A stretch of 64,000 nucleotides of DNA. Origin: Bdellovibrionales bacterium. Its GTDB lineage: Bacteria > Bdellovibrionota > Bdellovibrionia > Bdellovibrionales > JAUICD01. The translations under genes were made by a program, and so were the position numbers. The stretch is from contig OZ241865.1 of NCBI GenBank assembly GCA_965203275.1, positions 160,001-224,000 on the forward strand. The letters run 5' to 3'. Shown one piece after another: positions 49,338-52,525 of this stretch. The notes below the pieces were generated by a model. The model searched no databases. It saw only the letters and a program-made list of their open reading frames with translations, and had not been told where the DNA came from. The first letter of the stretch is position 1, and every line of letters starts with the position of its first letter.

Positions 49338-49652
49338 TTATTGTGTACTGAGTAATATATCAAATATCTTATCGAGGCGTTGATTGATTTGGTCAAACCT
49401 CTGATTAACTTGGTCAAACTTCTTATCAACCTTATCAAACTTCTGATCAATCTTATCAAACTTCTGATCAAGTTTCTTTATTTCTTCTTTTAATTCTTTT
49501 TGATGATCTTTTAATTCTTTAATTTGTGTGGGTATATGGTTATATACCTGTTCTTTAATGGGGTTGATTAAAAACTTCAAAATAATGATGAAGCTAGCTA
49601 ACACACCAATTAAACTACCTAAAATAGCGATTATTTGTAAAGTTATGTCCAT
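49338..49652 (-). CDS. Array gene 9 (last): TM plus coiled-coil repeat protein, 104 aa
   Basis: MDITLQII leader; unique C-terminus LLSTQ. Confidence 0.85.
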   Translation of the reverse strand: MDITLQIIAILGSLIGVLASFIIILKFLINPIKEQVYNHIPTQIKELKDHQKELKEEIKKLDQKFDKIDQKFDKVDKKFDQVNQRFDQINQRLDKIFDILLSTQ

Positions 49653-49683
49653 ATCTTAGTACCTCCTTTTATATTATTATACT

Positions 49684-49989
49684 CTATTTTTTCCCTTTAG
49701 GCCCGGTATGTTGACTGAGTAATATATCAAATATCTTATCGAGGCGTTGATTGATTTGGTCAAACCTCTGATTAACTTGATCAAACTTCTGTTCAAACTT
49801 CTGATCAAGTTTCTTTATTTCTTCTTTTAATTCTTTTTGATGATCTTTTAATTCTTTAATTTGTGTGGGTATATGGTTATATACCTGTTCTTTAATGGGG
49901 TTGATTAAAAACTTCAAAATAATGATGAAGCTAGCTAACACACCAATTAAACTACCTAAAATAGCGATTATTTGTAAAGTTATGTCCAT
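49684..49989 (-). CDS. Array gene 8, 101 aa
   Basis: Paralog with own RBS. Confidence 0.85.
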   Translation of the reverse strand: MDITLQIIAILGSLIGVLASFIIILKFLINPIKEQVYNHIPTQIKELKDHQKELKEEIKKLDQKFEQKFDQVNQRFDQINQRLDKIFDILLSQHTGPKGKK

Positions 49990-50018
49990 ATCTTAGTACC
50001 CTCCTATATTATTATACT

Positions 50019-50270
50019 CTATTTTTTCCCTTTAGGCCCGGTATGTTGACTGAGTAATATATCAAATATCTTATCGAGGCGTTGATTAACTTGGTCAAAC
50101 TTCTGGTCAAGTCTCTTTATGTCATCTCTTAATTCTTTTTGATGATCCTTTAGTTCTTTAATTTGTGTGGGTATATGGTTATATACCTGTTCTTTAATGG
50201 GGTTGATTAAAAACTTCAAAATAATGATGAAGCTAGCTAACATACCGATTATTTGTAAAGTTATGTCCAT
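50019..50270 (-). CDS. Array gene 7, 83 aa (7-aa deletion in the TM segment)
   Basis: MDITLQIIGMLASF versus MDITLQIIAILGSLIGVLASF in the other copies. Confidence 0.85.
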   Translation of the reverse strand: MDITLQIIGMLASFIIILKFLINPIKEQVYNHIPTQIKELKDHQKELRDDIKRLDQKFDQVNQRLDKIFDILLSQHTGPKGKK

Positions 50271-50301
50271 ATCTTAATACCTCCTTTTATATTATTATAC
50301 T

Positions 50302-50586
50302 CTATTTTTTCCCTTTAGGCCCGGTATGTTGACTGAGTAATATATCAAATATCTTATCGAGGCGTTGATTGATTTGGTCAAACCTCTGATTAACTTGATC
50401 AAACTTCTGATCAAACTTCTGGTCAAGTCTCTTTATGTCATCCTTTAGTTCTTTAATTTGTGTGGGTATATGGTTACATACTTGTTCTTTAATGGGGTCA
50501 ATTAAAAACTTCAAGATAATGATGAAGCTAGCTAACACAACAATTAAGCTACCTAAAATAGCGATTATTTGTAAAGTTATGTCCAT
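50302..50586 (-). CDS. Array gene 6, 94 aa
   Basis: IVVL/IDPIKEQVC haplotype. Confidence 0.85.
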   Translation of the reverse strand: MDITLQIIAILGSLIVVLASFIIILKFLIDPIKEQVCNHIPTQIKELKDDIKRLDQKFDQKFDQVNQRFDQINQRLDKIFDILLSQHTGPKGKK

Positions 50587-50617
50587 ATCTTAGTACCTCC
50601 TTTTATATTATTATACT

Positions 50618-50944
50618 CTATTTTTTCCCTTTAGGCCCGGTATGTTGACTGAGTAATATATCAAATATCTTATCGAAACGTTGATTAATTTGTTCAGCCA
50701 TCCTATCGAGGCGTTGATTAACTTGATCAAACTTCTGATTAACTTGTTCAAACTTCTGATTAACTTGTTCAAACTTCTGATCAAGTCTCTTTATTTCATC
50801 CTTTAGTTCTTTAATTTGTGTGGGTATATGGTTATATACCTGTTCTCTAATGGGGTTGATTAAAAACTTCAAAATAATGATGAAGCTAGCTAACACACCA
50901 ATTAAACTACCTAAAATAGCGATTATTTGTAAAGTTATGTCCAT
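50618..50944 (-). CDS. Array gene 5, 108 aa
   Basis: Paralog with AGGAGG RBS. Confidence 0.85.
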   Translation of the reverse strand: MDITLQIIAILGSLIGVLASFIIILKFLINPIREQVYNHIPTQIKELKDEIKRLDQKFEQVNQKFEQVNQKFDQVNQRLDRMAEQINQRFDKIFDILLSQHTGPKGKK

Positions 50945-50975
50945 ATCTTAGTACCTCCTTTTATATTATTATACT

Positions 50976-51344
50976 CTATTTTTTCCCTTTAGGCCCGGTA
51001 TGTTGACTGAGTAATATATCAAATATCTTATCGAAACGTTGATTAATTTGTTCAGCCATCCTATCGAGGCGTTGATTAACTTGGTCAAACTTCTGATTAA
51101 CTTGTTCAAACCTCTGATTAACTTGATCAAACTTCTGATTAACTTGTTCAAACTTCTGATTAACTTGTTCAAACTTCTGATCAAGTCTCTTTATTTCATC
51201 CTTTATTTCTTTAATTTGTGTGGGTATATGGTTATATACCTGTTCTCTAATGGGGTTGATTAAAAACTTCAAAATAATGATGAAGCTAGCTAACACACCA
51301 ATTAAACTACCTAAAATAGCGATTATTTGTAAAGTTATGTCCAT
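50976..51344 (-). CDS. Array gene 4, 122 aa
   Basis: Paralog with AGGAGG RBS. Confidence 0.85.
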   Translation of the reverse strand: MDITLQIIAILGSLIGVLASFIIILKFLINPIREQVYNHIPTQIKEIKDEIKRLDQKFEQVNQKFEQVNQKFDQVNQRFEQVNQKFDQVNQRLDRMAEQINQRFDKIFDILLSQHTGPKGKK

Positions 51345-51375
51345 ATCTTAGTACCTCCTTTTATATTATTATACT

Positions 51376-51747
51376 CTATTTTTTCCCTTTAGGCCCAGTG
51401 TGTTGACTGAGTAATATATCAAATATCTTATCGAAACGTTGATTAATTTGTTCAGTCATCCTATCGAGGCGTTGATTAACTTGGTCAAACTTCTGTTCAA
51501 ACTTCTGATTAACTTGATCAAACTTCTGATTAACTTGGTCAAACTTCTGGTCAAACTTCTGCTCAAGTTTCTTTATTTCGTCTTTTAATTCTTTTTGATG
51601 CTCTTTTATTTCTTTAATTTGTGTGGGTATATGGTTATATACCTGTTCTCTAATGGGGTTGATTAAAAACCTCAAAATAATGATGAAGCTAGCTAACACA
51701 CCAATTAAACTACCTAAAATAGCGATTATTTGTAAAGTTATGTCCAT
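51376..51747 (-). CDS. Array gene 3, 123 aa
   Basis: Paralog with AGGGG RBS. Confidence 0.85.
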   Translation of the reverse strand: MDITLQIIAILGSLIGVLASFIIILRFLINPIREQVYNHIPTQIKEIKEHQKELKDEIKKLEQKFDQKFDQVNQKFDQVNQKFEQKFDQVNQRLDRMTEQINQRFDKIFDILLSQHTGPKGKK

Positions 51748-51774
51748 ATCTTAGTACCCCTATATTATTATACT

Positions 51775-52122
51775 CTATTCTTTCCCTTTAGGCCCGGTGT
51801 GTTGACTGAGTAATATATCAAATATCTTATCGAAACGTTGATTAATTTGTTCAGCCATCCTATCGAGGCGTTGATTAACTTGGTCAAACTTCTGATTAAC
51901 TTGTTCAAACCTCTGATTAACTTGATCAAACTTCTGATTAACTTGTTCAAACTTCTGATCAAGTCTCTTTATTTCATCCTTTATTTCTTTAATTTGTGTG
52001 GGTATATGGTTATATACCTGTTCTCTAATGGGGTTGATTAAAAACTTCAAAATAATGATGAAGCTAGCTAACACACCAATTAAACTACCTAAAATAGCGA
52101 TTATTTGTAAAGTTATGTCCAT
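51775..52122 (-). CDS. Array gene 2, 115 aa
   Basis: Paralog with GTGGGG RBS. Confidence 0.85.
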   Translation of the reverse strand: MDITLQIIAILGSLIGVLASFIIILKFLINPIREQVYNHIPTQIKEIKDEIKRLDQKFEQVNQKFDQVNQRFEQVNQKFDQVNQRLDRMAEQINQRFDKIFDILLSQHTGPKGKE

Positions 52123-52153
52123 ATCTTAGTACCCCACTTTATATTATTATACT

Positions 52154-52474
52154 CTATTTTTTCCCTTTAGGCCCGGTATGTTGACTGAGTAATATATCAA
52201 ATATCTTATCGAAACGTTGATTAATTTGTTCAGTCATCCTATCGAGGCGTTGATTAACTTGGTCAAACTTCTGTTCAAACTTCTGGTCAAACTTCTGTTC
52301 AAACTTCTGATCAAGTCTCTTTATGTCATCCTTTAGTTCTTTAATTTGTGCGGGTATATGGTTACATACTTGTTCTTTAATGGGGTCAATTAAAAACTTC
52401 AAGATAATGATGAAGCTAGCTAACACAACAATTAAACTACCTAAAATAGCGATTATTTGTAAAGTTATGTCCAT
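52154..52474 (-). CDS. Array gene 1 (promoter-proximal), 106 aa
   Basis: IVVL/IDPIKEQVC haplotype, GTGGGG RBS. Confidence 0.85.
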   Translation of the reverse strand: MDITLQIIAILGSLIVVLASFIIILKFLIDPIKEQVCNHIPAQIKELKDDIKRLDQKFEQKFDQKFEQKFDQVNQRLDRMTEQINQRFDKIFDILLSQHTGPKGKK

Positions 52475-52497
52475 ATCTTAGTACCCCACTTTATATT

Positions 52498-52525
52498 ATT
52501 ATACTCTATTCATACTAAAAGTCAA
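52498..52525 (-). promoter_or_regulatory. Sigma70 promoter of the nine-gene array
   Basis: TTGACT-N16-TATAAT. Internal units retain the TATAAT but not this -35. Confidence 0.7.

Follow-up and report, generated by a model that had tools for sequence, protein, structure and literature searches.

XhlA of phage lysis cassettes is built as a coiled coil followed by a C-terminal membrane segment, and the Bdr proteins of Borrelia also carry their anchor at the C-terminus. XhlA-type genes are placed in lysis cassettes such as PBSX xhlA-xhlB-xlyA and are required, along with holin and endolysin, for PBSX lysis (PMC10630273, PMC5589764), and vesicle formation in Bacillus needs XhlA as well (PMC5589764). 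The trimeric stalk proteins of the DUF1640/CCDC90-like and DUF3782 type have, where their C-terminal stalk begins, a beta-layer neck of the pattern [aliphatic]-A-T-K-[polar]-[DE] (PMC4786415). The releasin gp25 of phage Mu is an N-out, C-in lysis helper which alone does not lyse cells (PMC9239132), and phage lysis inhibition is disrupted by LidI, a protein encoded by the PLE satellite (PMC7182436). Here we analyzed an array of nine genes for small membrane-anchored coiled-coil proteins, located at positions 49338-52525 of a 64,000-nucleotide stretch (the window) of contig OZ241865.1 from a Bdellovibrionales bacterium (assembly GCA_965203275.1, contig positions 160,001 to 224,000). The array is part of a large family in this genome, and we tentatively explain it as domesticated phage lysis-accessory modules which are kept at high dosage as decoys against phage lysis, a possible reading to which we give clearly less than an even chance.

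The nine open reading frames (ORFs) run head to tail on the minus strand from 52474 down to 49338 without stop or frameshift, at the same places and with the same lengths as in an earlier note on this DNA. In transcription order they are copy 1 (52154-52474, 106 amino acids, aa), copy 2 (51775-52122, 115 aa), copy 3 (51376-51747, 123 aa), copy 4 (50976-51344, 122 aa), copy 5 (50618-50944, 108 aa), copy 6 (50302-50586, 94 aa), copy 7 (50019-50270, 83 aa), copy 8 (49684-49989, 101 aa) and copy 9 (49338-49652, 104 aa). These lengths rise and fall along the array and do not form the graded series which had been described. An N-terminal hydrophobic segment (approximately residues 7-25), the neck NHIP(T/A)QIKE and the cap DKIFDILLS are present in all nine copies, as the earlier note had claimed, and in copy 7 the anchor is shortened by an in-frame deletion of seven residues. 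The stalks comprise 24-57 residues, are all different and are made of 21-bp and 12-bp units; the corresponding 7-aa and 4-aa modules of the note are real, and two more were missing from it, namely a 7-aa HQKELK-type insert and an 11-aa RLDRMxEQINQ-type insert.

Contrary to what had been proposed, the array does not stand alone as a system, for it holds just 9 of 104 family matches in the genome, which is a single 2.57-Mb contig with 35% GC and about 75% coding density. These matches were collected by an iterated profile search of 25,499 reading frames (78, 100, 103 and then 104 matches) and amount to about 5% of the called genes (104/1812). They are distributed over 59 loci, 39 with single genes and 20 with clusters; the clusters are arrays of 9, 9, 7, 5, 4 and 3 copies and 14 pairs, two of the pairs being the halves of a broken gene. 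About five matches look broken, a count which decayed copies would escape. The Asn-His motif is found in 89 of the 104 members and the core module of the family reads IKxQVxNH[IL]PTQI. In some subfamilies the variable coiled coil comes after the motif and in others before it, which leaves the motif, the anchor and the cap as the fixed parts; one member of 389 aa has a very long repeat stalk (G000:C1:1059332-1060504). Strong promoter matches precede 46 of 100 family genes vs 256 of 1712 others, and strong ribosome-binding sites 73 of 100 vs 498 of 1712, where the comparison set includes operon-internal genes; from these signals the family genes are predicted to be strongly expressed. The host is likely a sponge symbiont, because a related strain is present in one sponge-metagenome run (X7, 13/30 bins covered) and the genome has 97 ankyrin-like genes.

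In the single-chain fold of copy 5 the protein is one long helix (residues 2-101) with a mean predicted local distance difference test value (pLDDT) of 88.7. Three chains of copy 6 were modelled together and scored 0.75, vs 0.03 for the best of three controls. Among 30 solved pairs of one chain 20 attain the score mark, and among 23 single chains one does; these counts hold only roughly here, the calibration being on two-copy cases and the three-copy assembly being the sole size modelled. At least 91% of contacts were common to the runs, pLDDT was at least 83, and the contacts pair equal residue numbers, so that the modelled rod is parallel and in register. A parallel homotrimeric coiled coil is thus supported by the model, and this part of the earlier oligomer claim stands while its placement on the surface does not. 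Asn38 and His39 were not among the confident interface residues of the trimer, which has no bearing either way on an axial metal site.

Basic residues flanking an anchor mark its cytoplasmic side (the positive-inside rule). No lysine or arginine stands before the anchor in any of the nine array copies and one or two stand after it; among the 57 members, out of 104, in which a clear anchor occurs together with the motif (the 47 omitted have a weak anchor score or no motif), 54 such residues were counted before the anchor and 111 after, and the charges lean to C-in in 36 members, to the opposite in 15 and are equal in 6. The anchor is accordingly predicted to lie in the inner membrane with the stalk in the cytoplasm, and this prediction is the main argument against surface antigens. 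A lipobox was seen in 1 of 104 members and none in the array, and a heuristic scan found no cleavable signal peptide. The surface fibres, variable antigens and outward phage decoys of the earlier note are not borne out by these data, the variation being confined to the stalk.

No member of a described family could be recognized in the array. In a Pfam scan of four array proteins, with the best 22-25 matches listed for each, neither XhlA (PF10779, cut-off 34.7 bits) nor DUF2730 (PF10805) was among the matches listed; the releasin likeness has an Atlas lead at 0.83. PF07798 (cut-off 33.5 bits) has three matches elsewhere in the genome and none in the array; one CCDC90-like (DUF1640) gene above the Pfam cut-off lies near the CRISPR locus (L049:925-1527). 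The neck pattern [aliphatic]-A-T-K-x-[DE] is absent from all nine sequences. The best library match is phrog_1009 (13 of 24 aligned members, best expect value E 2e-11, over most of the 103-position profile), which has no assigned function or curated cut-off and may reflect the common layout of anchor plus coil. A sequence search of PDB returned generic coiled coils only (best E 0.003), and a viral-structure fold search with the single-helix model gave 0 matches, a result that says little.

The array proteins resemble DUF1640/CCDC90, DUF3782 and Borrelia Bdr in being small anchored coiled coils with a predicted trimer, repeat-based length variation and multiple copies (PMC4786415, PMC6127242), but they have no head domain and no beta-layer neck, and the anchor is at the other end. 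The loose analogy to DUF1640 and Bdr with an opposite anchor, as the earlier note put it, therefore holds. They differ from XhlA, whose layout the array copies do not show, by the N-terminal anchor in 9/9 copies, the chromosomal and multi-copy state, the variable length and the lack of an adjoining endolysin or holin; the neighbours are a lipoprotein and a pilin in place of a lysis cassette. Mu gp25, which is lysis-related, is alike in size (about 100 aa), in its single N-out, C-in anchor (predicted for the array) and in its cytoplasmic domain, but it is single-copy in transposable phages near its endolysin, and no endolysin is near the array. LidI is satellite-encoded and single-copy, and is likened by function only, as a defensive upsetter of lysis timing. 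Judged by these comparisons, the array proteins belong to a real and undescribed family which is structurally akin to the anchored coiled coils DUF1640/CCDC90, Bdr, XhlA and releasin and a member of none. It is named by none of the family libraries searched, as the earlier note had supposed, and 0 papers of the literature searched contain the motif strings; that literature, at the level of titles and abstract openings, also gave no description of the family.

The family is distributed patchily. It was not found in any of four same-family genomes, including the same-genus G001 (complete contig, 92%), nor in any of 400 sampled genomes of the phylum, where at most 12 candidates per genome were scored and the result reads 'not found' rather than absence. 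Weak matches in 5 of 40 relatives were rejected; L002 and L006, the two examined, proved to be coiled coils of another kind which lack the motif. One metagenome-assembled genome (MAG) of the Leptospiria has 13-14 matches, whereas 0 of 60 of its relatives match. These include a separate nine-copy array (L059:3275-9506, lengths 99-154 aa), in which the motif survives as KHIPTQI in the two end copies and is gone from the seven inner ones, and four single genes. Each of these single genes stands head to head with a second anchored coiled-coil gene (L031:4302-9074, L033:4314-5141), whose membrane segment is central and whose C-terminal cap is similar. Another 2.1-Mb contig contributed 10 of 53 matches, and one match is named as coming from a Pirellulales MAG. 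Among 1.84 billion protein representatives, 153 were found at E 0.001 or better; the motif is present in 138 of 158 collected proteins, 121 of them from outside this species. Similar arrays, which the earlier note had advised to look for in related genomes, exist within the same genome and in the Leptospiria MAG. This distribution suggests horizontal spread followed by local amplification, and the module may have spread between co-living symbionts.

The link to phages was provided by metagenome contigs with 52 motif-pattern matches, of which 20 were confirmed, several being near-duplicates. All 20, and one IMG/VR contig, carry ORFs of 65-120 aa with the coiled coil first and a hydrophobic C-terminus, which is the XhlA layout, and a pattern-free profile search added five more C-anchored forms (P0119, P0125, P0128, P0134, P0140). 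Comparison of host and phage-like profiles gave a probability of 98.8% (E 1.2e-16, 38 columns), and a profile made from the phage-like forms alone has 87 matches in this genome. Isoleucine at -6, a position outside the search pattern, is kept in 94% of phage-like forms and in 78% of this genome's family. The phage-like forms have the size of XhlA and its late-gene position beside endolysins: in the scan of neighbours (19 of 21 loci, 42 proteins) an endolysin or amidase match lies just downstream in 3 of 19 loci (L062, L069, L073), a peptidase is by one (L080), and tail, structural or portal genes are beside five. Weak matches to PF10779 (E 0.012, 2/17; at most 16.3 bits, far short of the Pfam cut-off), phrog_1193 (3/17) and DUF7201 (3/17) were recorded, and the Atlas neighbours of one phage form are viral clusters, the nearest named being XhlA (0.90; PF10779 on 16% of members). 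When viral sequences were scanned with one phage form, five loci came up whose match was limited to the anchor region, and these were set aside. We infer that the module passed from phage to host.

The array itself seems to have grown from one ancestral cassette. A sigma-70-type promoter heads it on the minus strand (52498-52525, -35 box 52525-52520, -10 box 52503-52498, spacer 16), recognized by consensus match only (11/12); the scan gave 14 matches vs 19 expected by chance, and this is the sole one above 9/12. The -35 box is found only before copy 1 and a -10 box is kept before every internal copy, and the single strong promoter of the earlier note is retained on this basis. The spacers are 27-31 nt long, each with a -10 box and a ribosome-binding site, and small deletions occur upstream of copy 3 (4 nt) and copy 8 (2 nt); the ribosome-binding sites have the consensus in copies 4-7 and 9 and are weaker in copies 1-3. 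At each internal junction, for example at 52123-52186 (minus strand), an array-specific stretch precedes the retained -10 box and ribosome-binding site. This stretch replaces the -35 box of copies 2-9 and encodes the basic C-terminal tail of copies 1-8, while copy 9, without the tail, likely has the original C-terminus. It is confined to the eight internal junctions and occurs at no other place in the genome; look-alikes upstream of three other family genes were rejected, being short and on the opposite strand. No terminator was found after copy 9 by scan (folding z = -0.88), and an Rfam search of the whole window returned two tRNAs and nothing else. Copy 6 is a mosaic, since six variants of its N-terminal block are in common with copy 1 alone and missing from the copies between. 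The junctions and this mosaic fit head-to-tail duplication of a single cassette and later reshuffling.

Coding DNA of the copies is 91-99.7% identical with gaps excluded (mean 95.5%), and the copies are, judged by this identity, recent duplicates. In the alignable blocks there are 15 variable codons with a ratio of nonsynonymous to synonymous change (pN/pS) of 0.32 and no sign of diversifying selection, and over 59 distinct versions of the 19-codon module the dN/dS is 0.18-0.26, a figure biased low by the picking of the set by motif. The module is thus under purifying selection. Two non-triplet indels are present in the eight short spacers and none in approximately 2.9 kb of coding DNA. In-frame length change is automatic because the stalk units are 12 and 21 bp, and it gives little evidence of selection; the contrast between spacer and coding indels gives slightly more. 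Diversification of length by repeat slippage and unequal crossover, as previously proposed, is supported. The selected repertoire of lengths is not, given the youth of the copies, the different lengths in other strains and the selection figures above, and stalk length was likely tolerated rather than tuned.

An assembly artefact is unlikely as the source of the array because the nine stalks all differ, foreign contigs cross the junctions and other assemblies are multi-copy. Individual gene-to-gene junctions are crossed by contigs of other public runs with 0-3 differences (records 3, 10, 22), and in other assemblies single contigs carry several copies; their lengths differ from those here, and truncation or a frameshift is seen in some (P0006, P0008). 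None of the contigs listed from other runs spans the whole array, and the copy number of nine is that of this assembly. On one sponge-metagenome contig the promoter region is joined directly to a copy-3-like body. Public contigs break off at a short repeat with a 6-nt unit, located at 49159-49223 between the flanking gene and the end of the array.

That flanking gene (48408-49163, plus strand) encodes a predicted lipoprotein of 251 aa and is transcribed convergently to the array. An orthologue exists in the same-genus G001, where no array follows it and the surrounding region lacks synteny. On the other side a type IV pilin-like gene with the N_methyl motif (53024-53683, plus strand) is divergent from the array. 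Its N-terminus is near-identical to that of another pilin-like gene at 14636-15307, and more copies exist elsewhere, two of them adjoining other family loci. A Mutator/IS256-family transposase (54394-55629, plus strand), which overlaps the end of the ORF at 55619-56128, has eight full-length copies in the genome, seven of them at 99.9-100% identity, and was therefore recently active. A palindromic repeat of about 145 bp (52739-52878) has about 600 genome copies, some 93 kb in all, with other window copies at 16051-16204, 16257-16428, 33996-34141, 56423-56528 and 61453-61583, and is not enriched at family loci (18/56 vs 260/617 gaps). Four 31-nt direct repeats (52859-53013) are placed beside it.

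Lone Cas12a-type handles were found at 17 places of the genome (G000:C1, for example at 363994, 437908, 960068, 1168380, 1546813, 1600241, 1744663, 1884192 and 2428091), and 11 of the 17 lie within 200 nt of a family gene, vs 1.6 expected and a maximum of 7 in 2000 draws. Many are preceded by a -10-like box and followed by a terminator-like hairpin, and they resemble in layout crlRNA genes, which consist of handle, guide and terminator (bioRxiv 10.1101/2024.10.29.618823). The genome also has a type V-A locus (L049:3350-13800, which is G000:C1 235.3-245.8 kb) in which the canonical cas12a is N-terminally truncated, with the first 310-325 profile positions or so missing. The locus further contains ORFs resembling cas1 (short) and cas2, a Cas12a-like effector of 1325 aa which is divergent and encoded on the opposite strand, and an array of six spacers, none of which matches the phage-like loci beyond 14 nt.

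In the explanation which we prefer, the Asn-His-Ile-Pro-Thr-Gln module would have been taken from a phage lysis-accessory protein in the XhlA position, duplicated in tandem behind one promoter and then exchanged by unequal crossover or gene conversion, with stalk length shifting by slippage on the 12- and 21-bp units. Strongly expressed inner-membrane trimers would present the phage-type module in the cytoplasm, where they may bind an infecting phage's membrane lysis proteins, so that the membrane step of lysis comes at the wrong time, and about 100 gene copies would raise the dose of decoy. An anti-phage role would not be without precedent, for LidI and the Mu releasin indicate that small proteins can alter lysis in such a way. 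Several observations weigh against this explanation. No Pfam or NCBIfam family reached the cut-off for the array proteins, and PADLOC 2.0, run on three of them, gave weak partial matches to much longer proteins (best E 1.1e-5). Twelve of the 19 phage-like loci are without a virion, lysis or peptidase match and many of them are 1-3 kb long; most were fetched by the motif, which makes its conservation partly circular and belongs with the bias of the dN/dS set. The shared stretch covers just 29-38 residues, so convergence is possible, and a search of 50,697 annotated phage genomes turned up no close match. The anchor at the opposite end from the phage form makes a parallel mixed trimer awkward. 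No terminase was found in the genome with the one family model used, and the family loci lie, by eye, among housekeeping, pilin and ankyrin genes and not in defence islands. No lone handle is near the nine-gene array, and no convincing target was found for the guides of the 17 handles. The wider proposal, that unrelated symbionts independently domesticated a phage lysis module, flipped its anchor and amplified it to dozens or a hundred copies of variable length, and that this new decoy system travels with lone CRISPR guide-like RNAs, appears doubtful to us.

The same anatomy, selection and expression evidence would also suit abundant inner-membrane stalks which act as an envelope scaffold of the host, organising a membrane complex or aiding protein export or vesicle release in a symbiotic niche, with a use like that of DUF1640/CCDC90 proteins or the Mu releasin and with the phage origin being only history. 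The three CCDC90-like matches of the genome and the need for XhlA in Bacillus vesicles (PMC5589764) are in line with such a role, and the neighbours of family genes lean to ankyrin and secreted proteins (odds 1.8 and 1.4), but this lean is not significant (p = 0.09 for both). A core scaffold is moreover expected in close relatives, whereas G001 and the three other family members gave no match, and about 100 diverging copies exceed the need of a scaffold, so we consider this role somewhat unlikely. A self-promoting cassette with internal repeats could instead multiply by near-neutral birth and death, with just the harmless in-frame products retained and its copy number and length being immaterial. 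The genome is of a kind in which this could happen, with its hundreds of palindromic repeats, young insertion sequences and coding density of about 75%, and the high identity of the copies, the broken and differently sized copies of other strains and the contig which joins the promoter region to a copy-3-like body agree with it. The low number of broken matches in this genome speaks against it, though decayed copies are undercounted, as do the retention of Asn, His, Pro and Gln while synonymous change is free, the restriction of non-triplet indels to the spacers and the recurrence of the same expansion in another phylum, the Leptospiria MAG; near-neutral turnover is on balance unlikely.

Length variants selected as surface fibres, variable antigens, outward phage decoys or molecular rulers, as first proposed for this array, draw on nine different and intact stalks, on trimeric rods in the model and on the variable-length array of another phylum. 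The predicted cytoplasmic stalk without cleavable signal or array lipobox, the conservation of both protein ends with no variable head, the lengths that differ between strains and the lack of an excess of amino-acid change make them improbable. Only a small chance is also given by us to addiction modules, in which the family proteins would be membrane toxins silenced by Cas12a-type guide-like RNAs, as in CreTA. The closeness of 11 of the 17 lone handles to family genes, the type V-A locus and the crlRNA layout of handle, guide and terminator are what such modules would have; but no PAM-flanked (protospacer-adjacent motif) seed match of any guide was found in the adjacent family promoters of the 17 handles, most family loci, including the nine-gene array, have no handle, the canonical cas12a is truncated, and tandem copies equipped with strong promoters and ribosome-binding sites suit a product that does no harm.

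Symbiont genomes repeatedly contain small anchored coiled coils that offer no functional handle, and the motif recurs in at least 121 additional sequence clusters of other organisms. The link to a phage late-gene module provides a specific and testable hypothesis for them together with a marker motif. The array is less special than was first thought, and the family behind it, with its 59 loci, is larger and more interesting than the array alone suggested. If the decoy explanation is true, it would represent a defence strategy aimed at the timing of lysis and may serve as a probe of the roles of proteins in the XhlA position; if it is wrong, the family would still clearly exemplify lineage-specific gene amplification that has recurred across phyla.

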